Source: Lachnospiraceae bacterium
GTDB taxonomy: Bacteria > Bacillota > Clostridia > Lachnospirales > Lachnospiraceae
Assembly (NCBI GenBank): GCA_045598365.1
Contig: JAZLLV010000056.1
Span: forward strand, 9,498 to 73,497
Length of the DNA: 64,000 bases
Direction: 5' to 3'
In this document: positions 788 to 57,124 of the stretch, one piece after another
How the letters are laid out: every line of letters starts with the position of its first letter
Position numbering within the stretch: the first letter of the stretch is position 1
Position numbers and translations under genes: made by a program
The notes under the pieces: model-generated
The model's database searches: none
What the model saw: the letters and a program-made list of their open reading frames with translations, nothing else
What the model was told of the DNA's origin: nothing

Positions 788-862
788 GTCATATATTAAG
801 CATTTATATTGCTATTTTTAAACAAATGGGGATGTTATTATATTTACGAAAAGGGGTAAAGT

Positions 863-2014
863 ATGTATCGAAACATTTATGTTGAGATAGATAATTCCAA
901 AATACTTAGTAACAGCAAACTTTTATGTGAGACCTTTCCTCACAAATACAATATTGCTGTTATAAAGGGTAATGCCTACGGCCATGGCTATGGTATTATC
1001 CCAGCCTTGATTAAAGGCGGAATGAATGCCTTTGCTGTCTCTTCTTTGGATGAGGCAATAGAGGTAAGGAAATACGATAAAGAGCATCCGGTGATAATGC
1101 TTCAGCCGGTTTCGAAAATATATTACGGACTTTGTTCCGCGGAGAACATATCGGTTCTTGTAAATGATACAGACACTCTTGAAGATGTAATTAAAAGTGG
1201 CGAGAGTCTCAAGGTACAGTTTAAGGTAAACTGCGGAATGAACAGGCTTGGCTACCGTGACGGTAGTCTCCTTTCAAGAGATGTGGACAGGGCTATGAAA
1301 TGCGACAAGGTGCAGGTGGAAGGCATTTTCTCACATTTTCATACATCAGGCCTTACAGATAACGAATACGCAGACAATCGCAGGAGATTTGAGGAAATTG
1401 TTAAGGACATAGATTTATCAAAGATTCCCATGGTTCACCTTGATAAGACACAGACAATTCTCCTTCACAAAACTCCGGATTACTGTAACGGAGCACGTTT
1501 CGGACTGTCATTGTACGGATTTCCGTCCATATATCCCTATGATGCTTCACCCAAGGGCAAGCTTCTTACCCTGAGGCGGGATATAAAGAACAGGCTCAAT
1601 CATGTGGAGCCCTCAATTGAAATAAAGAATTACGACTTAAAGCCTGCCTTTGCTTTGAAAACTGAGGTTATAGAGATTAACGTGGTTCCCGCAGGAGAGT
1701 ATGTGGGCTATGGTCTTAAATATAAAACCACAAAGGCAGAAAGAATTGCAGTTATAGATGCAGGATACGCAGACGGAATCGGAAGAAAACGTTCCGGAAC
1801 AAAGGTATGTATCAATGGCAGAAAGTATCCCATTGTGGGAGAAGTCGGCATGGGTATGTGCCAGGTACAGGTGGATGACAATGTAAAAAAGGGAGATGCG
1901 GTTACTGTTTTGGGGGCAGACATTTCCATAAAGGCCATTGCCTCGGCGCTTGAAACCACCACCTATGAAGTATTAACAAATATTAATTCACAGATTCAGA
2001 GAAGATATCTTTGA
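863..2014 (+). CDS. alr: PLP-dependent amino-acid racemase, alanine racemase fold; substrate uncertain
   Basis: PLP-lysine motif [23 protein letters not shown], catalytic Tyr in GEYVGYG, and TTTYEV. Divergent at the ANSAA and GRICMDQ positions. Confidence 0.85.
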   Translation: MYRNIYVEIDNSKILSNSKLLCETFPHKYNIAVIKGNAYGHGYGIIPALIKGGMNAFAVSSLDEAIEVRKYDKEHPVIMLQPVSKIYYGLCSAENISVLVNDTDTLEDVIKSGESLKVQFKVNCGMNRLGYRDGSLLSRDVDRAMKCDKVQVEGIFSHFHTSGLTDNEYADNRRRFEEIVKDIDLSKIPMVHLDKTQTILLHKTPDYCNGARFGLSLYGFPSIYPYDASPKGKLLTLRRDIKNRLNHVEPSIEIKNYDLKPAFALKTEVIEINVVPAGEYVGYGLKYKTTKAERIAVIDAGYADGIGRKRSGTKVCINGRKYPIVGEVGMGMCQVQVDDNVKKGDAVTVLGADISIKAIASALETTTYEVLTNINSQIQRRYL

Positions 2015-3255
2015 TGGAGAAAAGAATAATGACTCACAACGTTGTTTTGCTGGGTTCTGATATAAATGCCTATTATATGGCAAGATGCTACTACGAATTG
2101 TTTAACGAACCCGTTGATATGATAGCCGCAGAGAAGATTCGTTTTACCGAGTTTTCTTCGATTGTAAATATACAGTATCACCCGAATCTTAAGAATGAAG
2201 AAGTCTTTGTAGAGACACTTATTGAGTATGGTAAAGTCCATCTTGATAAGGGAAGGAGTCTGGTTATTCCCTGCCATGATGTATATGTGGATCTTCTTTT
2301 GAGAAAAGCCAACCAGCTTACTTCCTACTTTGTTTTTAACTGTCCTTCTTTTGAAATTGCAGACAGTTTTCTTGATAAGGAAAAATTTTATAAGAAGTAT
2401 GCAGGCAGCAAGCTTAAGTTCGCAAGAACCGAGTATTATGACTGCTCTTTAGAGGAAACAGCGCCCATTCCCGTGGATATGTTTTATCCCCTTATCATTA
2501 AGCCTGGCGACGCTATTGAGTATTACAGACATGTTTTTCCCGGTCAGCCCAAGGTATTTAAGGCAACGACCCCTGATAATGCCGTCAATTTTATCAATAA
2601 GGTTAAGGCATCAGGCTATAAGGGAACTCTTCTTGTGCAGGAATTCATTCAGGGAGATGATACGAATCTTTTTGACTCGATTTTCTATTGCAACAAAAAG
2701 GGAAAGGCTGAGCTTGCCACCTTTGCGCAGATTGGCCTTCAGGAGCATTCTCCTTCAGCCATAGGAAATGCCACTGTTTTAATTAACGGCTACAATCAGT
2801 ATGGCGGAACTGAAGAAATAATAGGGGAACTTAAGGAATTTCTTGAGGACCTTGGCTATACGGGCTTCTGTGAGTTTGACATAAAGTACGACAACAGAGA
2901 CAAGACCTTTAAGGTTATGGAAATCAATCCAAGGCAGGCCCGTTCAAGCTACTATCTTGCGGCTCTTGGTCACAACCTTATTGAGTATCTTTACAATGAT
3001 GTTTTCGAAAATGAAGAGCGTGAGTTTACTCTTCTTAAGGACGAATATCTTCTGACAATGGTTCCAAAATGCATCGTCAGAAAATACATCTTTAACACCG
3101 AATATAAGAAGAAAGCGCTTAAACTCTGGCGCAAACACAAAAAGTGCGATCCCTTAAGATTTTCAAAGGAAAAATCAATTAAGCACAGACTGTATCTTAT
3201 GCTCAGAGCTTACAGATACAGACAGAAGTACAGAAAGTTTTCCAACACCATATAG
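2014..3255 (+). CDS. ATP-grasp carboxylate-amine ligase, D-aspartate ligase (Asl/YxbA) family
   Basis: LLGSDINAYYMAR N-terminus, LIIKP, QEFIQGDD and GYTGFCEFDIKYDNRDKTFKVMEINPRQARSSYY match the Asl family from memory. ATG 2014 overlaps the racemase stop (TGATG); an alternative start at 2029 has a GGAGA SD. Confidence 0.8.
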   Translation: MEKRIMTHNVVLLGSDINAYYMARCYYELFNEPVDMIAAEKIRFTEFSSIVNIQYHPNLKNEEVFVETLIEYGKVHLDKGRSLVIPCHDVYVDLLLRKANQLTSYFVFNCPSFEIADSFLDKEKFYKKYAGSKLKFARTEYYDCSLEETAPIPVDMFYPLIIKPGDAIEYYRHVFPGQPKVFKATTPDNAVNFINKVKASGYKGTLLVQEFIQGDDTNLFDSIFYCNKKGKAELATFAQIGLQEHSPSAIGNATVLINGYNQYGGTEEIIGELKEFLEDLGYTGFCEFDIKYDNRDKTFKVMEINPRQARSSYYLAALGHNLIEYLYNDVFENEEREFTLLKDEYLLTMVPKCIVRKYIFNTEYKKKALKLWRKHKKCDPLRFSKEKSIKHRLYLMLRAYRYRQKYRKFSNTI

Positions 3256-3271
3256 GAAAGAGAGATATTCT

Positions 3272-5137
3272 ATGTGTGGATTTGCAGGTTTTATCGATAA
3301 CCTGAATACAGATAAAAAAAGAACCGTTATTAAGGAGATGAGCGATTCCATTGCCCACAGAGGTCCCGACGGAGAGGGCTTCTATGTGGATGACAGTATT
3401 GCTATGGGATTCAGACGCTTAAGCATCATTGACCTTAATACAGGAGACCAGCCCCTTTATAACGAGGACAAGTCTCTGGTTATTAACTTTAACGGTGAAA
3501 TTTATAACTACAGGGAATTAAGAGAAGATCTTATTTCCAAGGGCCATGTTTTTTATACAACCAGTGATACGGAGTCAATTCTTCATGGATTTGAAGAATA
3601 TGGAGAAAAAATTGTTGAAAAGCTTCGCGGTATGTTTGCCTTTGTTATCTGGAATAAGAATACAGGTGAACTTTTCGGAGCAAGAGACCCCTTTGGAATT
3701 AAGCCGTTTTACTATTACAATACCCCGGAGCTTTTTGCTTACGGCTCTGAAATAAAGGCTTTTCTAAGACACCCGGATTTTAAGAAGGAACTGAACAAGG
3801 ACGCACTTAAAACCTATATGTGCTTCCAGTATTCGGTTCCCACAGATACCTTTTTTAAGAATGTATATAAGTTAAATCCCGGTCATTACTTTTCGTTTAA
3901 GGATGGTGTCTTAAAGACAGAAGAGTACTTTAAGATTGAGTACAGAAACAACGAGGACGATTTAGATACAACAGTTGATAAGATAAACAACATAATGAAG
4001 GAAAGCATCGAATATCACAAAATCAGTGATGTTGAAGTAGGGGCTTTTCTTTCAAGCGGTGTTGATTCAAGCTACATAGTTGCAAATGCCAATGTTGACA
4101 AGGCCTTCACAGTGGGCTTTAAAAGCGATCACTTCGATGAGACAGAGGATGCCCACGCCCTTTGCGAAATACTTGGCATGAAGCATACAAGAAAGCATAT
4201 AACGGCAGACATGTTCTTTGATGCGCTGCCCACTGTTCAGTACCACTCCGATGAACCCCATGCGAATCTTTCCGCTGTGCCGCTTTACTTTCTGGCAAAT
4301 ATGGCGGCAAAGGAGGTTAAGGTAGTTCTTTCCGGTGAGGGTGCGGATGAACTGTTCGGAGGATATTATGAATACGAGACTCCTCCGGAATATGCAAAAT
4401 ACAATAAGATTCCTTTCCCTGTAAGACGCTTCTTAAAAGGCGTTGCGGAGAAGCTTCCCAACATGAAAGGAAGACATTTCCTTATTCGTGCAGGCTCCAC
4501 TTTGGAAGAATCCTACATCGGTCAGGCTTTTATCATGAACAACGAAGAGGCCGACAAGCTTCTAAAGCCCGACTACAGAGGGGGAAAGCTTTACAGCGAA
4601 GTTACTGTTCCTATTTTTGAAAAGGTCAAGGATAAGCCGGACCTTTTGAAGAAGATGTATCTTGATATGAATCTTTGGCTGCCCTATGACATTCTTTTGA
4701 AGGCTGACAAGATGACCATGGCGAATTCCCTGGAGTTAAGAGTTCCCTTCCTTGACAAGGAAGTGTTCAGGGTGAGCGAAGAGGTTCCTTTTAAGTATAT
4801 TATTAAGGATTATATTACCAAATATGCCTTCCGCCAGGCTGCGAATAAGACAATCCCCGAGGAATGGGCAAAGCGCAAGAAATTAGGCTTCCTTGTTCCT
4901 TTCAGAGAATGGCTTAAGGAAGATAAATGGTATGCCAAGGTAAAAGAGCAGTTTACTAAAGATTGGGTAAGCGAATTTTTCGATGTTGATGCAATAGTAC
5001 ATCTTCTTGACGAGCACAAAGCGGGAAAATGGAGCAATCAGAGAAAAATCTACACGATATATTCTTTTTTGATTTGGTATGAAGTATTTTTTATAAACGG
5101 TGCGATTGCACCAAAGGCGCCGGCTACAGAGGCGTAA
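3272..5137 (+). CDS. asnB: Asparagine synthase (glutamine-hydrolysing) family amidotransferase
   Basis: N-terminal nucleophile MCG, HRGPD, RRLSIIDL, FNGEIYNY, LSSGVDSS, LSGEGADELFGGY, SLELRVPFLD. Confidence 0.93.
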   Translation: MCGFAGFIDNLNTDKKRTVIKEMSDSIAHRGPDGEGFYVDDSIAMGFRRLSIIDLNTGDQPLYNEDKSLVINFNGEIYNYRELREDLISKGHVFYTTSDTESILHGFEEYGEKIVEKLRGMFAFVIWNKNTGELFGARDPFGIKPFYYYNTPELFAYGSEIKAFLRHPDFKKELNKDALKTYMCFQYSVPTDTFFKNVYKLNPGHYFSFKDGVLKTEEYFKIEYRNNEDDLDTTVDKINNIMKESIEYHKISDVEVGAFLSSGVDSSYIVANANVDKAFTVGFKSDHFDETEDAHALCEILGMKHTRKHITADMFFDALPTVQYHSDEPHANLSAVPLYFLANMAAKEVKVVLSGEGADELFGGYYEYETPPEYAKYNKIPFPVRRFLKGVAEKLPNMKGRHFLIRAGSTLEESYIGQAFIMNNEEADKLLKPDYRGGKLYSEVTVPIFEKVKDKPDLLKKMYLDMNLWLPYDILLKADKMTMANSLELRVPFLDKEVFRVSEEVPFKYIIKDYITKYAFRQAANKTIPEEWAKRKKLGFLVPFREWLKEDKWYAKVKEQFTKDWVSEFFDVDAIVHLLDEHKAGKWSNQRKIYTIYSFLIWYEVFFINGAIAPKAPATEA

Positions 5138-5150
5138 AAAGGAGACAAGT

Positions 5151-6416
5151 ATGAATAAATCCGTATTTGAAGAAAATGAATCAGTTGTAAGGTCCTACTG
5201 CAGAAAGTACCCTGTTGTGTTTGAAAAAGCAAAGGGCTCATACATTTATGATACCGAGGGAAAGGCATATCTTGACTTCCTTGCAGGCTGCGGTGCCCTT
5301 AACTATGGTCACAACAATGACGAAATCAAGGGAGCGGTTATCGAATACCTTATGCAGGATAACATTACCCATGCAATGGATATGTATACCAGGGCAAAGG
5401 CAGAATTCATTGATACCTTCAAAAACAATATTTTAGATAAAAGCGGACTTCAGTATAAGATTATGTTCTGCGGTTCCACAGGAACAAATGCTGTGGAAGC
5501 AGCGCTTAAGCTTTGCAGAAAGAATAAAAAACGTTCCAACATAGTTGCATTTATGGGTGCGTTCCACGGAATGACCTTAGGAAGCCTTGCACTTACCACC
5601 GACCAGACCAGCAGAGAGGGTGCAGGTGTGTCTCTTGACAATGTGACCTTCATTCCTTTTGAAAACGGCTTCTCCGGCAAGTTTGATTCTTTGGACTATC
5701 TTGAGAATATTCTTCTTGATGATCACTCCGGAATTGAAAAGCCCGCAGCAGTATTCATTGAAACTGTTCAGGCCGAAGGCGGAATTAATGTTGCAAGTGT
5801 TGAATGGCTTAAGCGCCTTGAAAAGCTTTGTCATGACAATGATATTCTTCTCGTGGCTGATGAAATTCAGGTGGGCTGCTCCAGAACAGGAACCTTCTTC
5901 TCCTTTGAAAGAGCAGGAATCAAGCCCGATATGGTTACCCTCAGTAAGTCCATCGGTGGCTATGGATTCCCTATGTCTTTGTTACTTATAAAAGAAGAAC
6001 TTGATATTTGGAAACCTGCGGAGCACAACGGAACCTTCAGAGGAAATCAGGTTGCTTTTGTAGCTGCCAAGAAAGCAATTGAAGTAAATGTAAACAGCAA
6101 TCTTAACGCAGAAGTAAGAAGAAAAGGTGAGCTTGTAAAGGCCTTTGTGGAAAAGAACCTTCTTCCTCTTGATGAAAACATTTCCTTAAGAGGACTTGGC
6201 CTTATCTGGGGTATCGATTTCGGAAAACTTTCAGGCGGCAGCGAAATTGCCCACAGGATAGCTGATAAATGCTTTACAAAGAATATGATAATCGAGCGTG
6301 CCGGAAGAGGTGACTCGGTTGTTAAGATTCTTCCTCCCCTTACCATTACGGATGAAGAACTTACAAAGGGACTTAATATTATTCTTGAATCAACAAAGGA
6401 AGTATTGGGCAGGTAA
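5151..6416 (+). CDS. ectB: Diaminobutyrate--2-oxoglutarate transaminase (EctB/Dat, class III aminotransferase)
   Basis: ESVVRSYCR, GCGALNYGHN, FHGMTLGSL, ETVQAEGG, DEIQVG, PLP-Lys in SKSIGG, EHNGTFRGN. AAGGAG SD before ATG 5151. Confidence 0.9.
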   Translation: MNKSVFEENESVVRSYCRKYPVVFEKAKGSYIYDTEGKAYLDFLAGCGALNYGHNNDEIKGAVIEYLMQDNITHAMDMYTRAKAEFIDTFKNNILDKSGLQYKIMFCGSTGTNAVEAALKLCRKNKKRSNIVAFMGAFHGMTLGSLALTTDQTSREGAGVSLDNVTFIPFENGFSGKFDSLDYLENILLDDHSGIEKPAAVFIETVQAEGGINVASVEWLKRLEKLCHDNDILLVADEIQVGCSRTGTFFSFERAGIKPDMVTLSKSIGGYGFPMSLLLIKEELDIWKPAEHNGTFRGNQVAFVAAKKAIEVNVNSNLNAEVRRKGELVKAFVEKNLLPLDENISLRGLGLIWGIDFGKLSGGSEIAHRIADKCFTKNMIIERAGRGDSVVKILPPLTITDEELTKGLNIILESTKEVLGR

Positions 6417-7865
6417 ATGAAACTCAGTGAACTGATTCCCACAGAGTGGGATGCGGATATAGAAGTAATAACCGATGACTCCCGCACCAAAGGCAAAAAT
6501 ATTCTTTTTGTGTGCGTGAAGGGACTTACCGTTGACGGACACAGCTTTGCGGCAAAAGCTGTGGAGAACGGTGCGGTTGCAATTGTGTGTGAGCACATTG
6601 TTGAAGGAATTTCAGTACCTCAGGTTGTTGTGAAAGACTCCCAGAGGGCAATGAATGAAATCCTTAATAAGTTTTACGGTGACCCTCTTTCAAAGCTTAA
6701 GCTTATAGGTGTAACAGGTACTGACGGCAAGACAACCACTTCCGAAATGATGTACCAGATTCTTAACGGTCTTTCAAAAAAAACCGGATACATCGGAACC
6801 AACGGCATACGTTCCGAGCACTACACTCAGGACAACGAATACACCACTCCTCTTCAGGGAGATTTGTTTAAGGCACTTAACGGTTTTTCCGAAGATTCCT
6901 GTGAATTTGTTTCAATGGAAGCTTCAGGCGAAAGACTTGGCACGGGAAAAATGGATGGTGTGGAATTTGATGCCTCCATATACACCAATCTTACAAGAGA
7001 TGCTTTGGACCTTTTTAAGACCATGGAGAACTATGGCAGTGCAAAGGCAAAGCTTATGGAATACACCAAAAAGTCCGGAGTCTGTGTCATAAACAAGGAT
7101 GATAAGTATTCGCCCATGTTTATTGAAAAGGCAAACGGTAAGGTTATCACCTATGGTGTGGAAGATAAGACGGCAGATGTATATGCAACCGATGTAAATA
7201 TTGCATATAATAATCTTTCCTTTACCATGAACGGTGTTCTTGGAACCCATAAGATAAAATGCAGCCTTTCAGGCATTTTCAATGTTTATAATATTATGGC
7301 AGTGATTTCCGCCCTTAACCATTTCGGCATTGAAGTGGAAACCCTTGTTAAGCAGGTCTCACTGCTTAAACCCATTGAAGCCAGACAGACTGTTGTGGAC
7401 TTTGGCCAGCCCTTCAGGGTAATTGTGGACTACGCACATACCGCCAATGCAGTAAAAAATCTTGTGGAATATATTAAATCCACTCTTACGGACGGCTTTT
7501 TACGTGTGGTTGTGGGCGCCGGCGGTTCAAGAGACATAAACAGAAGAACCGACATGGCCGAGTATTGCACCAAAATGGCGGATTACAATTATTTTACCAT
7601 AGAAGATGCCAGATTTGAGGATCCGCAGATGCTGGTGGAAACCATGGTTTCTACGGTTCCGACTGCTCATAATTACGAATTGATTGTGGACAGGGATGAG
7701 GCGATTGCCAAGGCTATCCACGATGCCAAGCCCGGTGATGCAATATTAATCCTTGGTAAAGGGGCTGAGCGTTATATGCTTACCAACGGAGTTCAGGTAG
7801 AACGCCCCAACGATATTGAAAGAGCCGCAATGGTTCTTAAAGAAATGGGTTATGAAGAAAAATAA
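6417..7865 (+). CDS. murE: MurE-family Mur ligase (third stem-peptide residue) with atypical specificity loop
   Basis: DSR, DGH, P-loop GVTGTDGKTTT, TNLTRD, VDYAHT, GGSRD, GKG. EDARFEDP occupies the DNPRxEDP position. Starts immediately after the ectB stop. Confidence 0.85.
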   Translation: MKLSELIPTEWDADIEVITDDSRTKGKNILFVCVKGLTVDGHSFAAKAVENGAVAIVCEHIVEGISVPQVVVKDSQRAMNEILNKFYGDPLSKLKLIGVTGTDGKTTTSEMMYQILNGLSKKTGYIGTNGIRSEHYTQDNEYTTPLQGDLFKALNGFSEDSCEFVSMEASGERLGTGKMDGVEFDASIYTNLTRDALDLFKTMENYGSAKAKLMEYTKKSGVCVINKDDKYSPMFIEKANGKVITYGVEDKTADVYATDVNIAYNNLSFTMNGVLGTHKIKCSLSGIFNVYNIMAVISALNHFGIEVETLVKQVSLLKPIEARQTVVDFGQPFRVIVDYAHTANAVKNLVEYIKSTLTDGFLRVVVGAGGSRDINRRTDMAEYCTKMADYNYFTIEDARFEDPQMLVETMVSTVPTAHNYELIVDRDEAIAKAIHDAKPGDAILILGKGAERYMLTNGVQVERPNDIERAAMVLKEMGYEEK

Positions 7866-7936: not shown

Positions 7937-9547
7937 ATGGTTAATGTAATCAGAAAGCAAGATAATATAGTTAGAAAAACCGTATGCATGTTGATTTTTA
8001 GCCTTATTGTATCTTTTTGCTTTGTTGCAGGTAAAATATATGACACTGAGTTGACAGATTCCATTTTTTCTGTTTTTTTTGTGAAAAAATACATATTTTT
8101 TGTTCTGTTTTTTTTTACTACACTCTTCTTTTCTTGCTTTATTTATACGTTTATCAAGTCGAATAATGACAAGAAGCGCGTTCTTTTTATAAAAAGTGGC
8201 CCAAGTAAAAGACTCGTGTGTCTATTGCCTTTATGCTGCTACGCTATTTCGTTACTGTCAATTTTTCCCGGGATTTTTTCATACGATTGTTGGCAGGAAT
8301 GGGATATGATTGAAAAAGGAATGCTTTCTTCGCATCATCCGGTATTGCATGTGCTTATTTTGGGTGGCTTTACAAGCCTATCAAATTATATATTTGGTAG
8401 TGGTAATGTGGGAATCTTTTTGTATGTGTCTCTACAAATATTCTTTTTCTTGATTGTGTTTAGATATATTTTTCTATATATGGATGAAAAGGGTACCAGT
8501 CCATTGTCACAATGGACTGCGTTGTGTTTTGTCTCATTATCTCCAATTATCAATTTATTTGTTTTGGCTACTTCAAAGGACAGTTTGTTTGCTATATTTG
8601 AGCTTCTATTTGCCTTTGAGTCTGTGCGTTTATACAAAGAAAAAAGCTATTTGGAAGAAAAGAAAAATGTAGTAATATTTCTATTTGCCTCACTTGGCAC
8701 GATGATTTTTAGAAACAATGGATTATATATTGTCGTGTTAACGAATCTCATTATGTTGTTTCTCTGTAAGGGACGACGATTAAAATTGTTGATACCATAC
8801 GCGATTATTGGCGTAATTTATCTGGCATATACAGGGCCGTTTTACAATTTGCTTTCGGTAGAAGCTGGAAGCAAACGAGAAATGCTTTCTGTACCAATTC
8901 AGCAACTTGCCAGAGTGCATCAGTACGATTTTGACGATTTTACTAAAAATGAATTAAACATAATGTATTCGGTTATTGATAAAGAGAATTGGAACCAATA
9001 TGTTCCAACTTGTGCAGATGCAGTAAAAAACGGATTCGACGATGAAGCGTTTTCAAAAGCTGGTAAAGATTTTCTGAAAATATGGGTGAAACATGGGATA
9101 AATCATCCTGCGACTTATGCGAATGCATTTTTGATTAATACTGTTGACTATTGGTATCCGTTAGCTGTGAATGACAATTACGCTTGGTTATATGGAAAAG
9201 ATGAAAAAATAGGTGATTTTTTCGATTATAGGGTTGCAGAGCCGGGAAATGAGGTAGTAATAATTAAACCTTTGCATGATTTTTATTATTACATTTCGAC
9301 GGATTTACTTGTTACAAGCAAAATAATTCCTGCGCTGTTCTTAAATCCGGGTGTATATTTATTGCTGTGGATTGCATGCATGTTTTGGGACATTGCGAAT
9401 AAGATAACTTCGCGTGCGCCGATTCACATAGTGTTGTTATTTAACTTTTGGACAGTTCTTTTAGGTCCGATGGTTCAAGTAAGGTATATTGTCGTTTTGT
9501 ACTTTATAGTTCCATTGTGGTTTATGCATCAGCCTGCGGAATGCTAA
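7937..9547 (+). CDS. Multi-pass membrane protein, DUF6020-like (putative GT-C-fold glycan-modifying enzyme)
   Basis: Many hydrophobic helices; motifs PGIFSYD, HHPVLH, KDSLFA, FRNNG, SVPIQQLARV, GPMVQVRY. Clear paralog at 55517-57124. Visibly AT-richer than its flanks. Confidence 0.65.
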   Translation: MVNVIRKQDNIVRKTVCMLIFSLIVSFCFVAGKIYDTELTDSIFSVFFVKKYIFFVLFFFTTLFFSCFIYTFIKSNNDKKRVLFIKSGPSKRLVCLLPLCCYAISLLSIFPGIFSYDCWQEWDMIEKGMLSSHHPVLHVLILGGFTSLSNYIFGSGNVGIFLYVSLQIFFFLIVFRYIFLYMDEKGTSPLSQWTALCFVSLSPIINLFVLATSKDSLFAIFELLFAFESVRLYKEKSYLEEKKNVVIFLFASLGTMIFRNNGLYIVVLTNLIMLFLCKGRRLKLLIPYAIIGVIYLAYTGPFYNLLSVEAGSKREMLSVPIQQLARVHQYDFDDFTKNELNIMYSVIDKENWNQYVPTCADAVKNGFDDEAFSKAGKDFLKIWVKHGINHPATYANAFLINTVDYWYPLAVNDNYAWLYGKDEKIGDFFDYRVAEPGNEVVIIKPLHDFYYYISTDLLVTSKIIPALFLNPGVYLLLWIACMFWDIANKITSRAPIHIVLLFNFWTVLLGPMVQVRYIVVLYFIVPLWFMHQPAEC

Positions 9548-14712: not shown

Positions 14713-15459
14713 ATGAAACTGGAAGAATTCTTTGCAAAATACAGAAAAGTTGCCATTGCTTTTTCGGGAGGAGTGGATTCCGCATATCTTTTGTATGCGG
14801 CGGTAAAAGCCGGAGCGGATGTTAAAGCCTATTATGTTAAATCTGCTTTTCAGCCGGAATTTGAGTATTCCGATGCCGTAAAACTTGCAGAACAGATCGG
14901 CGCCAAAATGAAAACTCTGACTGTGGACATTCTGCAAAATGAAGAAGTGAAAGCTAACCCGAAAGACAGATGCTATTACTGCAAAAAGACTATTTTTTCA
15001 ACAATAGTATATGAGGCCGCAAAGGATGGTTATGAAGTGCTGTTGGATGGAACCAATGCCTCGGATGAGGAAGGCGACCGCCCCGGCATGAGAGCATTGA
15101 GAGAACTGACTGTTTTCTCACCCCTCAGAATTTGCGGACTTACAAAGGATGAGATACGAAGACTGTCCAAAGAAGCCGGTCTGTTTACCTGGAACAAGCC
15201 GGCATATGCCTGTCTTGCCACAAGAATTCCTACGGGCTGTGCCATCAGTAAGGATATTCTTTCTGCAACAGAAAATGCAGAGGATTACCTGTTTTCTTTA
15301 GGCTTTTCCGATTTCAGGGTCAGATATCTTAACGGAGCTGCAAAACTCCAGCTTAGAGAATCCGATTTTGAACTGATGACAAAATACAGAAAAGAAATAG
15401 TTGAGGAACTGACAAAATACTATTCAGATGTTTTTGTGGATTTGGAGGTAAGAGGATGA
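14713..15459 (+). CDS. larE: Nickel-pincer nucleotide cofactor sulfur transferase LarE
   Basis: PP-loop AFSGGVDS, RCYYCK, DGTNASD, RPG, ACLATRIP, DFRVR. Confidence 0.92.
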   Translation: MKLEEFFAKYRKVAIAFSGGVDSAYLLYAAVKAGADVKAYYVKSAFQPEFEYSDAVKLAEQIGAKMKTLTVDILQNEEVKANPKDRCYYCKKTIFSTIVYEAAKDGYEVLLDGTNASDEEGDRPGMRALRELTVFSPLRICGLTKDEIRRLSKEAGLFTWNKPAYACLATRIPTGCAISKDILSATENAEDYLFSLGFSDFRVRYLNGAAKLQLRESDFELMTKYRKEIVEELTKYYSDVFVDLEVRG

Positions 15460-16211
15460 ACAGCGATATAAGAGTATTGCTTGAACAGGTTAAGGAAGGC
15501 TCGGTTTCCGTGGATGAAGCCTTGCTTTCCATAAAAAAGGAACCCTTTGAGGATATAGGCTATGCAAAAGTGGACTTTCACAGAGGCATCAGACAGGGTG
15601 CGCCGGAAGTTATATACGGAGCCGGAAAAACACCGGAACAGATTATTGGTATCGTCGGCAGTATGCTTAAAAATAAGCAGGAAACCATACTGATTACAAG
15701 AATGTCCAAAGAAGCTGCGGATATTGTATCTCAGAGCTACGAACTTGATTATCGTGAAAATGCAAGAATCGGAATAGTAGGTAAACTTCCCAAGCCCACA
15801 GGAATAGGAAAAATTGTGGTTGCCACCGGAGGAACTTCAGATATACCAGTGGCGGAGGAAGCAGCTCTTACTGCCGAAGCCCATGGTAATGAAGTGGTAA
15901 GGCTCTATGATGTGGGAGTAGCAGGATTGCACAGACTGCTTGCACATATGGATGAGATAATGAGTGCATCGGTAATAATTGCAATCGCAGGAATGGAAGG
16001 TGCTCTTGCAAGTGTAATCGGAGGGCTTGCGGATTGCCCCGTTATTGCGGTTCCCACAAGCGTAGGCTACGGCGCTTCTTTCAACGGATTGTCAGCACTT
16101 TTATCAATGCTTAACTCCTGCGCCAGCGGAGTGTCGGTGGTTAATATTGACAACGGTTTCGGGGCCGGATATCAGGCCAGTATGATTAATCATATGGAGG
16201 TTAAGAAATGA
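15456..16211 (+). CDS. larB: Nickel-pincer cofactor biosynthesis protein LarB (PurE-like fold)
   Basis: AKVDFHR, GAPEVIYG, TGGTSDIPVAEEA, DVGVAGLHRL, AGMEGAL, AVPTSVGYG, VVNIDNGFGAG. Confidence 0.95.
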   Translation: MNSDIRVLLEQVKEGSVSVDEALLSIKKEPFEDIGYAKVDFHRGIRQGAPEVIYGAGKTPEQIIGIVGSMLKNKQETILITRMSKEAADIVSQSYELDYRENARIGIVGKLPKPTGIGKIVVATGGTSDIPVAEEAALTAEAHGNEVVRLYDVGVAGLHRLLAHMDEIMSASVIIAIAGMEGALASVIGGLADCPVIAVPTSVGYGASFNGLSALLSMLNSCASGVSVVNIDNGFGAGYQASMINHMEVKK

Positions 16212-17557
16212 AAACACTTTATATAGATTGCGGAATGGGTGCAGCCGGAGACATGCTCACTGCGGCGCTCCTTGAACTTGTTCCGGATAAACAGGCTTTT
16301 GTTGAGGAGTTCATGAAGCTGGGGATTCCGGGAGTAACTTTTGAGGCTGAAGCTTCTGCAAAATGCGGAATTCTGGGAACTCATGTAACCGTAAAGGTTA
16401 ATGGCGAGGAAGAAGAAAGCCACGACCACCATCATGACCACAATCATGACCATGAGCACGGACACGAACATGATCATGACCATGAGCATGACCACGAGCA
16501 TGACCATGAGCATGAGCACGAGCATGACCATCACCACGAGCATGGCCATGAGCATGAGCACGAACATGACCATGAGCATGACCATCATCATGAGCACGAG
16601 CATGACCATCACCATGGTCACCATCACAGCAGTATGCACGATATTGAGCATATTGTTAACGGACATCTCAACGTTTCCTCAAAGGTTAAGGAGGATGTCC
16701 TTGCGGTATATAAGTTAATCGCAGAGGCTGAAAGCGTTGCCCATGGCGTTCCCGTAAGTGAAATACATTTCCATGAAGTAGGTACCATGGACGCTGTTGC
16801 GGACATAACCGCCGTTTGTATGCTGATGGAAAAGATTTCGCCGGATAAGGTTGTGGTTTCACCTATACATGTGGGAAGCGGTCAGGTCAAGTGTGCGCAC
16901 GGAATTCTCCCCGTGCCTGCGCCTGCAACTGCGTATATTCTTAAGGATGCCCCTATATACGGAGGCAGCATCCGCGGCGAACTTTGTACTCCTACAGGTG
17001 CAGCTTTGCTAAAGCATTTTGCCACCAAGTTTGGCGATATGCCGGTTATGAAGGTTTCAAATATCGGATATGGAATGGGCAAAAAGGATTTTGAAATTGC
17101 AAACTGCGTAAGAGTTATGCTGGGCGAGTCTGATATCAAGTCGGATACAGTCTGCGAACTTTGCTGCAATGTGGACGATATGACGGGTGAGCAGATAGGT
17201 TTTGCCATGGAAAAACTATTCGAGGCAGGTGCACTTGATGTTTACACCACCAATATCGGTATGAAAAAGTCCCGTCCCGGTATTCTGATTTCAGTTATGT
17301 GTAAAGAAGACGACCGTGAGAAAATGCTGAAACTTATTTTCAGACACACGAGTACGTTAGGGGTAAGAGAAAGCTTTTCCGGAAGATATACCATGGAGCG
17401 CTCCATTGATAAGGTGGAAACCGTATTTGGTGATGTAAGAGTAAAACGTTCTTCGGGATACGGAGAAACAAGAGAAAAATTTGAATATGAGGATCTGGCA
17501 CGCATAGCATCTGAAAATGATATGTCAATATCGCAGGTTCTTAATAAAATAAAATGA
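16208..17557 (+). CDS. larC: Nickel insertase LarC (full length, with long His-rich insert)
   Basis: GAAGDM, HFHEVG, HGILPVPAPAT, ELCTPTGAALL, GYGMG, NVDDMTGE, MKKSRPG, STLGVR, KFEYED. Confidence 0.93.
   Translation: MKTLYIDCGMGAAGDMLTAALLELVPDKQAFVEEFMKLGIPGVTFEAEASAKCGILGTHVTVKVNGEEEESHDHHHDHNHDHEHGHEHDHDHEHDHEHDHEHEHEHDHHHEHGHEHEHEHDHEHDHHHEHEHDHHHGHHHSSMHDIEHIVNGHLNVSSKVKEDVLAVYKLIAEAESVAHGVPVSEIHFHEVGTMDAVADITAVCMLMEKISPDKVVVSPIHVGSGQVKCAHGILPVPAPATAYILKDAPIYGGSIRGELCTPTGAALLKHFATKFGDMPVMKVSNIGYGMGKKDFEIANCVRVMLGESDIKSDTVCELCCNVDDMTGEQIGFAMEKLFEAGALDVYTTNIGMKKSRPGILISVMCKEDDREKMLKLIFRHTSTLGVRESFSGRYTMERSIDKVETVFGDVRVKRSSGYGETREKFEYEDLARIASENDMSISQVLNKIK
16421..16627 (+). repeat. His-rich (H-E/D)n coding repeat in larC
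   Basis: 69 codons with approximately 6-nt periodicity (CAY-GAN); I counted 40 His of 69 residues, with His at every odd position. Confidence 0.95.
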
Positions 17558-17576
17558 TAATAGGGGGTATATTACC

Positions 17577-18635
17577 ATGCATATGGCAGATGCTTTATTG
17601 GCGCCTGCAATGGCAGCCACGATGTATGTGGCATCAACAACAACAGCAGGATTTTCAATCCACAGTTTAAGAAAGGATGAGAATACTGCAAAACTTCCCA
17701 CAATGGCGGTTGCATCAGCGCTTGTTTTTGCGGGACAGATGATTAACTATACCATACCGGGAACCGGTTCATCGGGTCACCTTTGCGGAGGCTTTATGCT
17801 TTCAGCTCTTTTGGGACCTCAGGCAGGTTTTCTTTCAATGGTTGTTATTCTTGCAATCCAGTGTCTTTTCTTTGCAGACGGAGGCTTAATGGCCCTTGGA
17901 GCAAACTGTTGGAATATGGCATTTTACGGGTGCTTTGTGGGCTATTACCTGATTTGGAAACCGATTGTTCAGGGAAAGCTTTTCTCAAAAATGGAAAATG
18001 CAAAGGCAATGAGAATCAAGATTGTACTTGCTTCTATCATTGGATGCGTATTGACACTTCAGTTAGGTGCTTTTTCAGTTGTTCTTGAAACAACCTTCTC
18101 CGGTATCACAGAACTTCCCTTCGGTGCTTTTGTGGCTCTTATGCAGCCCATTCACCTTGCAATCGGTCTTGTTGAAGGCTTAGTTACCGCAGCAGTTCTT
18201 ATCTTTGTATATGAATCCAGACCGGAACTTCTTCAGGGAACCGTAAAAACCGAAGAAGAGAAGAAGGCACGTCTTTCCTTAAAAGTAACCATGGTTGTGA
18301 TTGCGGTTGTTGCTCTCCTTGTGGGTGGTGTTTTCTCACACTTTGCAAGTTCAAATCCGGACGGTCTTGAATGGTCACTGTTTGGCAACGAAGAAGAAGG
18401 TTACAATGCCAATATGGCACTTGATGAGGAAGATTACGGTATTTCAAGTGCTGTTGCCGATACGGCTGCTTTAATTCAGGAGAAAACAGCATTCTTACCT
18501 GACTATGCTTTCGCAGAAAGCGAAAGCCCTCTCGGAACCACCGTATCCGGTGTTGCAGGCTCGGTAATGGTTGCGGCTCTGGCTGCAGTTATCTGCTTTG
18601 TGGGTGGATTCTTCAGAAAGAAGAAAAAAATATAA
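17577..18635 (+). CDS. cbiM: ECF Ni/Co transporter substrate component, CbiM/NikM fused to a PDGLE (NikN-like) domain
   Basis: Metal-binding N-terminus MHMADALL, GTGSSGHLCGG, QCLFFADGGL, SSNPDGLEWS. Confidence 0.88.
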   Translation: MHMADALLAPAMAATMYVASTTTAGFSIHSLRKDENTAKLPTMAVASALVFAGQMINYTIPGTGSSGHLCGGFMLSALLGPQAGFLSMVVILAIQCLFFADGGLMALGANCWNMAFYGCFVGYYLIWKPIVQGKLFSKMENAKAMRIKIVLASIIGCVLTLQLGAFSVVLETTFSGITELPFGAFVALMQPIHLAIGLVEGLVTAAVLIFVYESRPELLQGTVKTEEEKKARLSLKVTMVVIAVVALLVGGVFSHFASSNPDGLEWSLFGNEEEGYNANMALDEEDYGISSAVADTAALIQEKTAFLPDYAFAESESPLGTTVSGVAGSVMVAALAAVICFVGGFFRKKKKI

Positions 18636-18642
18636 TTTTTTG

Positions 18643-18669
18643 TCGGAGCGGCAGCATATGCCGCTCCGA
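18643..18669 (+). other. Strong intergenic hairpin between cbiM and cbiQ
   Basis: Perfect 11-bp stem TCGGAGCGGCA / TGCCGCTCCGA, 5-nt loop, only a weak T tail. Confidence 0.7.
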
Positions 18670-18682
18670 TTATTAGGAATAT

Positions 18683-19495
18683 ATGTCGGATATTAATAAT
18701 TCTGCCATGGAAATTCGCCGAATGGACGAATATGCGTTGATGGATTCGCCCATTCACAGACTTAATTCCCTGGCAAAACTTTTAGTGACAATTGCATATA
18801 TTTTCATTGTGGCTTCTTTTGACAAATACGATTTTTCGGGGTTGTTTGCAATGATTCTCTATCCGGTTACTATGTTTACTGTGGCCGGATTTTCTTTCAG
18901 GACCTGCTTTGTAAAGTTTAAGTATGTGTTACCGCTTGTGCTTATGGTTGGCATATTTAATCCTTTTCTTGACAGAGAGCCGGCGTTTGCTGTGGGAACC
19001 TTTGTCATTACAGGCGGGATGATTTCCATGGTCACTCTTATGCTGAAAGGTATCCTTTGTGTCATGGCTTCATTCATATTTGCGGCTACCACACCGGTGG
19101 ATTCAATCTGCAAAGCACTGAGAAAGCTGCATGTACCGGGCATTTTCGTGAACCTGTTTCTTCTTACCTGCAGATACATCTATGTTCTGGTGGATGAGGT
19201 TTCGGTGATGACCACAGCCTACAAACTCAGAGCACCGGGGCAAAAGGGCATAAGATTTGATGCCTGGGGGTCTTTTTTGGGACAGCTTCTTTTAAGAAGC
19301 ATGGACAGAGCTGAGGAATTGTATTCCTCCATGTGCCTGAGAGGATTTACCGGAGAATATGAGTATGCTGACTCCGGAAAGATGAAACTTAAGGACTGGA
19401 TTTTCCTGATAGTGGTGATTTCTTTATCAGTGTATTTAAGACGATATAATATTTTTGCTGCCCTTGGCAGTCTCGGAGTGCAAAGACGGATATGA
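18683..19495 (+). CDS. cbiQ: ECF transporter T component CbiQ/NikQ
   Basis: SPIHRL...AKLL, RYIYVLVDE, LLLRSMDRAEELYSSMCLRGF. Confidence 0.88.
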   Translation: MSDINNSAMEIRRMDEYALMDSPIHRLNSLAKLLVTIAYIFIVASFDKYDFSGLFAMILYPVTMFTVAGFSFRTCFVKFKYVLPLVLMVGIFNPFLDREPAFAVGTFVITGGMISMVTLMLKGILCVMASFIFAATTPVDSICKALRKLHVPGIFVNLFLLTCRYIYVLVDEVSVMTTAYKLRAPGQKGIRFDAWGSFLGQLLLRSMDRAEELYSSMCLRGFTGEYEYADSGKMKLKDWIFLIVVISLSVYLRRYNIFAALGSLGVQRRI

Positions 19496-20223
19496 TAGAT
19501 TTTGTTGATGTTTCTTTTGAATATGAACCCGGAAAAAAGGCTCTGAACAACATTTCCGTAAAAATAGAAAAAGGCGAAAAGGTGGGGCTCATCGGTGCAA
19601 ACGGAGCCGGAAAATCCACATTTTTCAAGGCTCTTCTGGGGCTTGTCAATTACAAGGGAATCGTTCTTGTGGGTGATGTACCTGTGTCAAAAGAAAACCT
19701 TAAGGAAATTCGCAAAAAAGTGGGATACGTTCTTCAAAATTCCGATAATCAGATGTTCATGCCCACGGTTTTTGAGGACATTGTTTTTGCTCCGCTAAAC
19801 TACGGACTTGGGAAGAAGGAAGCAGAAGAAAGAGCAGATAACATTTTGAAAAAACTTGGAATAGAGGACTTAAAACATCGTCACAATCATAAGTTGTCCG
19901 GAGGTGAAAAACGTATGGCTGCCATAGCCACGGTTCTGGCAATGAACCCGGAGGTAATACTTATGGATGAGCCTTCTTCTGCACTTGATCCCTATAACAG
20001 AAGACAGGTTATTAATGTCATTAGGTCCCTTGATAACACCTGTATAATAGCTTCACACGATCTTGATATGATACTTGATACCTGCGATAAAGTAATTCTT
20101 TTGAACAAGGGCGGTGTTGTTGTAACGGGAACCTGTGAAGAGGTGCTTAAGGATGCGGATCTTTTAGAGAAAAACAGGCTGGAGCTGCCACTCTCCTACA
20201 GGGCATTTGGTAAATATTATTGA
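19492..20223 (+). CDS. cbiO: ECF transporter ATPase CbiO/NikO
   Basis: Walker A GANGAGKS, Q-loop, LSGGEKR, DEPSSALD, SHD. Confidence 0.88.
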   Translation: MIDFVDVSFEYEPGKKALNNISVKIEKGEKVGLIGANGAGKSTFFKALLGLVNYKGIVLVGDVPVSKENLKEIRKKVGYVLQNSDNQMFMPTVFEDIVFAPLNYGLGKKEAEERADNILKKLGIEDLKHRHNHKLSGGEKRMAAIATVLAMNPEVILMDEPSSALDPYNRRQVINVIRSLDNTCIIASHDLDMILDTCDKVILLNKGGVVVTGTCEEVLKDADLLEKNRLELPLSYRAFGKYY

Positions 20224-55516: not shown

Positions 55517-57124
55517 ATGCTTAATAAGCTGACAACAAAAGATTGCATATATGCGGGCATAGGCGGATTTATTATTTCTTTGATGCTCGTTCTGGGTGCT
55601 TTTGTCAAAAGAAGCGGAACTGTTTTTGAACATGGTATAAAAATTCTGTATATTTTGCCGGTATTTGCCGTTTGTACAGGTGTTCTTTTGCTTTTGTTTA
55701 TGCTTATGAAAAGAATGGGCAGGACAACTGTCTGCCCTCTTCCGAATCGCCTTGTTAGAAGCTCCTTTGTTTATTTTGTTTTGATGTTTGTTGCAGTACT
55801 GATACTGTGGCTTCCTTCTCTTCTTGCGGTCTATCCGGGATTGTATACATATGATGCATCATGGCAGCATGATATGTATAAGGATAACATCGTTACGGAA
55901 CACCATCCTGTGTGGCACACTTACCTTTTGGGGTGGTGTACGGAAACCTTTAGAAATGCGGACGGAATGAATAAAGGTGTATTTTTGTACACTGTAATTC
56001 AAATGATTATTATGGGTATTGGCTGTGCATATATTTTGTATCTGCTGCACAGGAGAAAAGAACCTGCATGGATGCATGTGTTTGCATTGGCATTCTTTTG
56101 TCTTTATCCGCCATTCGTAATATTTGTGTTCACAAATACAAAAGACAGCATTTTCGCAATAGCAATAGCTGATTTTCTGCTGTTAAATCTGGATATCATA
56201 GAAAATAGGGATGCTTTTTTTGAAAAAATATCCAATATGATTTCGTGGATTATATTATTCTTTTTGATATCTACACTTAGAAATAATGCAGTATATGCGC
56301 TGATAATTGTACTTCCTTTTTTTCTGTGGAAAGTACTTTTTAAGTCAGGAAAAAATCTTAAGGCGCTTTTGATGGTGTCGATTGCTTTGGTTATATATCT
56401 TGTTTATAAATACCCGATAACCAATGCAATAACCGTGGAAGGAATAGCTGAAAGAGAAAAACTTTCGGTACCCTGCCAGCAGGTTATGAGAGTTTACACA
56501 TACCATAGAAATGAGTTAGAGGATGAAGAGAAAGCAGCCATAAGGCGGGCTTTTGAATCAAAGCGCTGGAATATGTATTACCAGCCCCAGATTGCTGACC
56601 CTGCAAAGGGCGCTTTTGATATTGAACTTTTTGAAGAAAAAAAGAGCGAATGCGTGAAGTTCTGGCTGAATCTTGGTAAGAAGTATCCAACGGAATATAT
56701 AGATTCTTTCATTGAAAATACCTATGGTTTCTGGTACCCCTGGCCCAAATATGTTTCATATTACGATGGAAGGACAGCCTACACTCCCATAGAGTGCAAA
56801 GATCCGGCTGCCATGAACAGTAAACTTCCCGCGCTTCTTAACTTTTTTAAACTGTTTGAAAACAGCAGTGTAGTGGATGGAAATGTTTTTATTTCCTGGA
56901 TTTTTTCGCCTGCTCTATTTTTATATATAGCTTTCTTTGTGGCTTTGGTTGTCATTAAAGAGAGAGGATTAAAATATATTTTGCCGTTTTTGTTTATTGC
57001 ACTTTTGTGGGCAACATATTTGCTTGGTCCGGTTGCAGCAGTCAGGTATGCATTTTTTATGTTCCCGTGTGTTGTTGTCTGGCCTGCTTTTATCAGGTCA
57101 TGTAAACAGGCAGATTTAGTATAG
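55517..57124 (+). CDS. Multi-pass membrane protein, DUF6020-like
   Basis: YPGLYTYD, HHPVWHT, TKDSIFA, LRNNA, SVPCQQVMRV, LLGPVAAVRY; paralog of 7937-9547. Confidence 0.65.
   Translation: MLNKLTTKDCIYAGIGGFIISLMLVLGAFVKRSGTVFEHGIKILYILPVFAVCTGVLLLLFMLMKRMGRTTVCPLPNRLVRSSFVYFVLMFVAVLILWLPSLLAVYPGLYTYDASWQHDMYKDNIVTEHHPVWHTYLLGWCTETFRNADGMNKGVFLYTVIQMIIMGIGCAYILYLLHRRKEPAWMHVFALAFFCLYPPFVIFVFTNTKDSIFAIAIADFLLLNLDIIENRDAFFEKISNMISWIILFFLISTLRNNAVYALIIVLPFFLWKVLFKSGKNLKALLMVSIALVIYLVYKYPITNAITVEGIAEREKLSVPCQQVMRVYTYHRNELEDEEKAAIRRAFESKRWNMYYQPQIADPAKGAFDIELFEEKKSECVKFWLNLGKKYPTEYIDSFIENTYGFWYPWPKYVSYYDGRTAYTPIECKDPAAMNSKLPALLNFFKLFENSSVVDGNVFISWIFSPALFLYIAFFVALVVIKERGLKYILPFLFIALLWATYLLGPVAAVRYAFFMFPCVVVWPAFIRSCKQADLV

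Follow-up and report, generated by a model that had tools for sequence, protein, structure and literature searches.

A five-gene Lachnospiraceae cassette with an EDAR-type MurE and a candidate role in making diaminobutyrate-containing wall precursors

Residue 3 of the peptidoglycan stem peptide and the cross-bridge set how the bacterial wall is recognized by NOD1/NOD2, lysozyme, endolysins, bacteriocins and transpeptidase-targeting drugs. In the A4-alpha pathway of Enterococcus faecium and Lactococcus lactis, these parts are made by the racemase RacD, the D-aspartate ligase Aslfm/AslA, the amidotransferase AsnH and an L-Lys-adding MurE. Enzymes of the latter kind carry the motif D(D/N)P(N/A) in place of the DNPR of MurEs that add meso-diaminopimelate (meso-DAP). 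Walls with L-2,4-diaminobutyrate (Dab) at position 3 are exemplified by the B2-gamma type of Microbacteriaceae, for which, to our knowledge, the ligase genes have not been defined. Here, we describe a cluster of five genes in a 64,000-nucleotide stretch (the window) of the Lachnospiraceae bacterium assembly GCA_045598365.1 (contig JAZLLV010000056.1, positions 9,498 to 73,497 of the forward strand). The genes encode a racemase of the alanine racemase (Alr) fold, an ATP-grasp ligase, an AsnB-type amidotransferase, the transaminase EctB and a MurE in which DNPR is replaced by EDAR. The best reading of the sequence is that they form one cell-wall precursor cassette, which would replace the meso-DAP-containing, directly cross-linked wall usual in Lachnospirales. 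We found no paper describing an operon of such composition, and literature searches on Dab in the walls of Clostridia, Lachnospiraceae or rumen bacteria, on a MurE acting with Dab, and on a wall type combining L-Dab and D-Asp gave nothing relevant. The wall types of most gut and rumen Lachnospiraceae are listed as unmeasured in a recent review (PMC11382707).

The window belongs to a 2.54-Mb, 97% complete genome in 59 contigs from a rumen/gut bacterium (G000; G+C content 0.402). A preliminary description of this DNA had reported five same-strand genes following a terminator, with gaps of -1, 16, 13 and 0 nucleotides, and the sequence confirms this layout. The four junctions read TGATG, where the ligase start overlaps the racemase stop by 1 nucleotide, 16 nucleotides, 13 nucleotides and TAAATG. 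The G+C content of the cluster, 0.40-0.43, matches that of the genome.

The last gene encodes a MurE with the domains Mur_ligase, Mur_ligase_M and Mur_ligase_C, scoring 387 bits against a cut-off of 257 for TIGR01085 and 421 against 373 for NF001126. Its EDAR aligns with the DNPR of the meso-DAP enzymes, the DNPA of the Staphylococcus aureus enzyme and the DDPR of the Thermotoga maritima enzyme. It is thus neither the motif of the meso-DAP class nor that of the L-Lys class, as the Arg is retained and the Pro is lost, and we know of no characterised MurE with an EDAR motif. It had been proposed to look in the genome for a second, DNPR-type murE and for dapF; dapF is present, and tblastn over the whole genome returned no second murE, the other Mur ligases being only MurF on contig C13 and MurD on contig C59. 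With no second MurE in the genome, the enzyme of the operon must make the stem peptide of the cell.

The motif change is conserved within the genus. Eighteen other genomes of this genus were sampled, and MurE orthologues of 69-84% identity came from 17 of them (a single match in 16, an extra short fragment in one), the results for the remaining one, which is 72% complete, containing no MurE. All 17 carry FTIEDAR, and ectB adjoins 16 of them, the seventeenth MurE lying at a contig edge. By comparison, 12 genomes, each from another family of the order, all have a TSDNPR MurE followed by murF, with 30-37% identity to the window MurE. In a FastTree phylogeny of 56 MurEs, read by its topology, the EDAR enzymes form a single clade that groups with DNPR/DDPH MurEs of small-genome Bacilli metagenome-assembled genomes (MAGs), not with those of Lachnospirales. 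This placement suggests that the EDAR MurE was acquired and displaced the native one.

The evidence that ties this MurE to Dab is its covariation with ectB. The identification of the fourth product as EctB, diaminobutyrate-2-oxoglutarate transaminase, is borne out by scores above both equivalog cut-offs (574 against 552.2 bits for TIGR02407 and 604 against 438 bits for NF006733). In a family-wide sample of 401 genomes, namely G000 and one representative of each of 400 Lachnospiraceae genera, an EctB above the cut-off occurs in 14, and the murE-linked form only in G000, G290 and G420 (70-100% identity). These are also the only three with a verified EDAR MurE (G290 is of the same genus as G000), and in each of them ectB (70% identity or more) is adjacent and the orthologue of the ATP-grasp ligase is at least 47% identical. 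Orthologues of the ligase at that level occur in exactly these three genomes, while 29 other genera have relatives of 26-37% identity only. The hypergeometric chance of finding ectB in all three EDAR genomes is about 3e-5, or about 1e-3 if just two genera are counted. One further FTIEDAR match, in G229, lies outside any murE; a reversed-pattern control gave four matches, and we attribute it to chance.

The same association holds beyond this sample. FTIEDAR is present in 24 of 24 ectB-adjacent MurEs, which come from related loci, while MurEs beside the ligase in loci without ectB carry EDPG, EDPR, VDPY or DNPR. Furthermore, among ten genomes whose MurE is of another type, nine gave no ectB. At one locus, L027, the MurE carries EDAR with no neighbouring ectB; an unlinked ectB was predicted, and one was found elsewhere in that genome (585 bits). 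Thus, the variant MurE proposed in the preliminary description stands, with EDAR in place of DNPR tracking ectB in four lineages and DNPR retained in the 12 other families. The supply logic fits as well: a synthesis gene is present only in the Dab-type cassette, and Lys and Orn are ordinary metabolites. We consider the ectB-murE link the best-supported part of the present reading, and Dab is, on this sequence evidence, probably the substrate of the EDAR MurE.

EctB also occurs in other settings. It lies beside polyketide synthase-nonribosomal peptide synthetase (PKS-NRPS) genes in other Lachnospiraceae. In three to four further genera of the family (loci L096, L098, L100 and also L101), it follows genes for a DJ-1-like protein, a MurT-like Mur ligase and a GatD-like amidotransferase on the same strand, and these loci appear to constitute a second, different link of Dab synthesis to wall-precursor enzymes. 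In the window genome, PF06339 (ectC) gives no match, the control genomes being silent as well, and ectA and ectC are not in the operon.

Many genomes carry both a DNPR MurE and an EDPG, EDPR, DDPH or EDAR paralogue (G324, G441, G432, G436, G438 and G439), including tandem MurE pairs in G324 (L142) and G441 (L150/L162). Such pairs suggest two kinds of stem peptide per cell.

The cassette as a whole is conserved. Genome contigs were scanned with a profile of the ATP-grasp alignment, which found 340 loci, and the best 80 were kept; all counts out of 80 refer to these. The full five-gene order recurs in 22 further species-level loci of Lachnospiraceae, and another six, truncated by contig ends, match this order over the part that is present. 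The cultured Lachnospiraceae bacterium YSD2013 (L005) is a carrier of the full cassette. Partial sets are rac-grasp-ectB-murE in L029, a Bacilli MAG, and rac-grasp-asnB-murE in L027. That the five genes recur at 22 loci with their order intact shows that the arrangement is not chance. It had been asked whether the genes co-occur in other genomes, and they do, in these complete loci and in the partial sets of L029 and G420.

More widely, the racemase and ATP-grasp genes form a pair, adjacent in about 75 of the 80 loci and accompanied by AsnB in 38. The hosts are Lachnospiraceae, other Clostridia, Acutalibacteraceae, Erysipelotrichaceae and small-genome Bacilli. The neighbouring genes, with names read from sequence and in part domain-scanned, include ftsEX, M23 and S41 peptidase genes, murA, mreB and spoIID, as well as genes for a MurJ-like flippase, a glycosyltransferase of family GT4, a sortase and a variant MurE. 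Two other Lachnospiraceae genera have the order grasp, Asp-type racemase, murE (EDPG), and G442 has rac-grasp-asnB with just a DNPR MurE.

The ATP-grasp protein has no Pfam match and only a weak match in NCBIfam, to a family resembling carbamoyl-phosphate synthase (CPS); a sequence search of the PDB with it gave nothing useful. Its AlphaFold2 model has an ATP-grasp fold with high scores (predicted local distance difference test, pLDDT, 89.4; predicted template modelling score, pTM, 0.89), and the top Foldseek matches are ATP-grasp amino-acid ligases at E values of about 1e-13. Among PDB structures, it comes closest to the L-amino-acid ligases YwfE, BL00235 and RizA, then to CPS, PylC, PurK and Ddl, of which PylC is a Lys-N-epsilon-D-Orn ligase. 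A HMMER search for the family (E up to 1e-3) gave 4855 clusters at 50% identity. Many homologues bear the IMG product name 'D-aspartate ligase', and the names of ten distant cluster representatives are uninformative.

Natural domain fusions occur within the ATP-grasp family. P0137 and P0147 continue at the C-terminus into an asp_race-type racemase (TIGR00035, at 227 and 190 bits, respectively), FemAB domains occur in P0186 and P0236, and several members have a DegT-like PLP (pyridoxal 5'-phosphate) domain; the fusions comprise these four and also P0181, P0207 and P0259. The gene of P0137 adjoins PcsB-like M23 peptidase genes. One protein of 1235 amino acids joins DegT-like, ATP-grasp and FemAB parts. 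The designation 'D-Asp-type ligase' is thus a prediction based on the fold, the IMG product names and the fusions to Asp-type racemase or FemAB domains. Together, the context of the pair, the fusions and the IMG names point to a family that builds D-amino-acid branches onto wall precursors and is found together with non-DAP MurEs. The wide distribution of the module of racemase, ATP-grasp ligase and variant MurE suggests walls of a branched, non-DAP type in many uncultured Firmicutes.

The amidotransferase has the features of the peptidoglycan-amidating AsnB paralogues (AsnH, AsnB1 and LtsA). It combines an N-terminal-nucleophile glutaminase domain (GATase_7; N-terminus MCGF, with Cys2) with an Asn_synthase domain, and it is a second, paralogous copy, the housekeeping AsnB (622 bits to NF006949) being encoded on contig C46. 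If AsnB amidates the remaining free carboxyl of the branch, an acidic branch, D-Asp or D-Glu, is favoured.

The racemase is a divergent member of the alanine racemase fold (fold type III, PLP-dependent), with the domains Ala_racemase_N and Ala_racemase_C and a match to TIGR00492 of 235 bits in two stretches, as against 366 bits for the housekeeping Alr on contig C28. The catalytic Lys35 and Tyr283 and the Arg are retained. The canonical housekeeping motifs (KANAYGHG, SYG and CMD) are not present; their counterparts here are KGNAYGHG, GYG and GMGM, with FATSG as a further change. These substitutions are features of the subfamily, in which GYG is found in 97%, GMGM in 85-98% and Gly for the Asp of FAxSD in 100%. 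An insertion of ~30 amino acids spans residues 222-255, and extra basic residues at 308-311 give a faint hint of an acidic substrate. Relatives in the PDB include lysine racemases and broad-spectrum racemases. The only gene of the Asp/Glu racemase family in the genome is asp_race-like, at C44:4759-5457, in an unrelated context and unlinked to the cassette, and its product has Thr at the position of the usual first catalytic Cys. A MurI-type glutamate racemase was not found in the genome.

We propose the following mechanism, a Dab version of the Lys-D-Asx (A4) pathway. EctB would convert aspartate semialdehyde to L-Dab, and the EDAR-type MurE, as the sole MurE of the cell, would add L-Dab to UDP-N-acetylmuramoyl-L-Ala-D-Glu. 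The Alr-fold racemase would supply a D-amino acid, which the ATP-grasp ligase would join to the gamma-amine of Dab, much as Asl joins D-Asp to Lys. Finally, the AsnB paralogue would amidate the remaining free carboxyl of the branch, in analogy to AsnH, which turns D-Asp into D-isoasparagine. For this full scheme, with L-Dab at stem position 3 and an amidated D-amino-acid branch, the sequence evidence leaves the case evenly balanced.

Several observations weigh against the scheme, in whole or in part. First, the racemase beside the ligase is of the Alr fold, where a RacD-type aspartate racemase would be the expected partner. We know of no Alr-fold aspartate racemase, Alr-fold enzymes acting on Lys or Orn exist, and the fold would fit a D-diamino-acid product at least as well. 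Second, the set is not always complete or exclusive: G420, from a second Lachnospiraceae genus, has grasp-ectB-murE with no adjacent racemase or AsnB; G439 has ectB together with an EDPR MurE; and the other 11 genera with EctB have it at 55-59% identity in unrelated contexts. Third, MurE substrate motifs are no validated code for Dab. Fourth, the variant MurE beside the ligase is often a second copy to a DNPR MurE (G432, there with EDAR, and G324, G436, G438 and G439), and in genomes with the extra DNPR MurE the cassette is an alternative, not the sole pathway. Fifth, neither Asd, which makes the EctB substrate, nor ArgC was found in the G000 assembly, a weak TIGR01296 match proving to be GAPDH. 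An archaeal-type asd lies beside argH in 17 of the 18 same-genus genomes, and argH is missing here too; since the two are neighbours and both absent, the missing asd is probably an assembly gap.

The racemase brings up a different arrangement, a group-B-like wall in which L-Dab would again occupy position 3, the racemase would make D-Dab and the ligase would join it to the alpha-carboxyl of D-Glu, as in the B2-gamma Microbacteriaceae. Known Alr-fold racemases take neutral or basic substrates, as the lysine and broad-spectrum relatives in the PDB illustrate, and every gene of the cassette except AsnB would be accounted for. In addition, EctB is flanked by the ligase and murE in L029 and G420, and the MurT-like/GatD-like loci with ectB (L096, L098 and L100) suggest that attachment of Dab to D-Glu may occur in this bacterial family. 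However, nine of 12 genomes checked with the racemase-ligase pair have no ectB, so that D-Dab is not the general substrate of the pair. The adjacency of AsnB in 38 of the 80 loci is left unexplained, synthesis of a side-chain branch is suggested by the fusions with Asp-type racemase and FemAB domains, and the association of the ligase with variant murE is what would be expected if the ligase depended on the acceptor at position 3. Both arrangements had been set out in the preliminary description; by context, the A4-like cross-link is favoured, and the group-B-like one appears unlikely.

Similarly improbable, in our view, is that Dab occupies position 3 and the racemase, ATP-grasp ligase and AsnB serve another envelope role, on the D-Glu alpha-carboxyl or a secondary polymer, with no Dab cross-bridge. 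Such a division would respect the fact that the ectB-murE link is best supported and the substrate of the ligase is a prediction. G442 has the first three genes with only a DNPR MurE, and no MurT/GatD homologue was found in G000 by tblastn, so that AsnB could amidate D-Glu instead. On the other side, ATP-grasp orthologues of at least 47% identity occur only where an EDAR MurE and linked ectB occur (three of the 401 Lachnospiraceae genomes), and in every one of the four lineages but L027, which has asnB in between, the ligase is a direct neighbour of ectB-murE.

That the wall is an ordinary one, with the EDAR MurE adding meso-DAP or Lys, EctB serving a polyamine or secondary metabolite and the neighbours linked by position only, has in its favour the NF001126 score above the cut-off (the NCBIfam name being that of a DAP ligase), the presence of dapF, the retained Arg of DNPR and the ectB genes with PKS-NRPS genes elsewhere in the family, but we think it doubtful in view of the translational coupling of ectB and murE (TAAATG), the strict co-occurrence of EDAR and ectB in four lineages with one prediction (L027) borne out, the loss of the Asp, Asn and Pro of DNPR from a sole, essential MurE when 12 sister families retain DNPR exactly, and an ectoine synthase search that gave no match, the control genomes being silent too.

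Returning to the Dab version of the A4 pathway, we advance the following with slightly more doubt than confidence. The cassette may encode a chemotype for which we found no description, L-Dab at position 3 with an amidated D-branch, together with a new EDAR class of MurE and a new subfamily of Alr-fold racemases. It may be a horizontally moving unit able to displace the meso-DAP MurE, as in two Lachnospiraceae genera; or else the ATP-grasp protein may be the undefined cross-bridge ligase of group B. If true, this would provide a gene set behind a Dab stem peptide for the first time, and ideas on the evolution and exchange of MurE specificity could be tested on it. Likewise, an EDAR MurE with linked ectB would serve as a sequence marker from which Dab-type walls could be predicted in genomes.

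The coordinates of the cassette and its flanks are collected in Table 1. No terminator is predicted between murE and the downstream DUF6020 gene, which may be co-transcribed with the cassette. The DUF6020 gene is not conserved alongside the cassette and has a markedly lower G+C content (0.33-0.37). A second DUF6020 paralogue, with 30% identity to the first, lies at ~55817-57082 of the window, and some relatives have a DUF6020-acyltransferase fusion downstream of murE.

Table 1. Positions of the cassette genes and flanking features in the window.
Feature	Position	Strand	Remarks
Hairpin terminator	759-785	T run on + side	12 bp stem; ends upstream ctpA-like S41 peptidase gene
Promoter-like site TTTAAA-16-TATATT	817-844	+	19 nt upstream of first gene; consensus match only
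Racemase gene	863-2014	+	Alr-fold, 383 aa
ATP-grasp ligase gene	2014-3255	+	413 aa; ATG start; in-frame TTG at 2011 too
AsnB-type amidotransferase gene	3272-5137	+	621 aa
ectB	5151-6416	+	421 aa; ATG after AAGGAG ribosome-binding site; GTG at 5100 also open
murE	6417-7865	+	482 aa; ATG immediately after ectB stop codon
EDAR codons	7602-7613	+	in FTIEDAR, 7593-7613; aligned with the DNPR substrate motif of MurEs that add meso-DAP
DUF6020 polytopic membrane protein gene	7937-9547	+	starts 71 nt past murE

Elsewhere in the window, positions 14713-20223 hold a cluster for nickel-pincer cofactor synthesis and metal uptake, with a larE-like gene, larB and larC followed by cbiM(N)-cbiQ-cbiO. The LarC carries a long insert rich in His, Asp and Glu. 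Antisense to the His-rich part of larC, on the minus strand (16190-16666), runs a 158-amino-acid open reading frame rich in Met, Val and Leu, which most probably reflects the repetitive codons rather than a true gene.

Compared with known systems, the EctB of the cassette is above the equivalog cut-off of the transaminase family, like the EctB of ectoine biosynthesis and the Dat of Acinetobacter, and differs from these in having no adjoining ectA or ectC and in the translational coupling of its gene to murE. With the B2-gamma wall of the Microbacteriaceae, in which L-Dab is at position 3 and D-Dab on D-Glu, the predicted product would share wall Dab; that wall also requires a Dab supply and a Dab racemase. 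However, the Microbacteriaceae belong to another phylum, and the D-Glu linkage is a feature of their wall.

With the solved MurEs, the enzyme shares the three Mur ligase domains and aligns over its full length. These comprise the meso-DAP enzymes with DNPR (Escherichia coli, 1E8C; Mycobacterium tuberculosis, 2WTZ) and the L-Lys enzymes of S. aureus (4C12, DNPA) and T. maritima (4BUB, DDPR), and its best PDB scores, 250 and 232 bits, are to Lys-type enzymes. It departs from them in EDAR, in which the first Asp is changed to Glu, the Asn to Asp and the invariant Pro to Ala.

Finally, the A4-alpha pathway offers the broadest likeness. In both systems, a racemase, an ATP-grasp ligase and a long AsnB-type amidotransferase go with a non-DAP MurE, and members of the ATP-grasp family of the cassette are fused to RacD-type racemases and named D-aspartate ligase in IMG. 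The differences are that the cassette racemase is a PLP-dependent enzyme of the Alr fold, not of the RacD type, that the predicted acceptor is Dab, not Lys, and that the EctB supply gene and the MurE lie inside the operon of the cassette.

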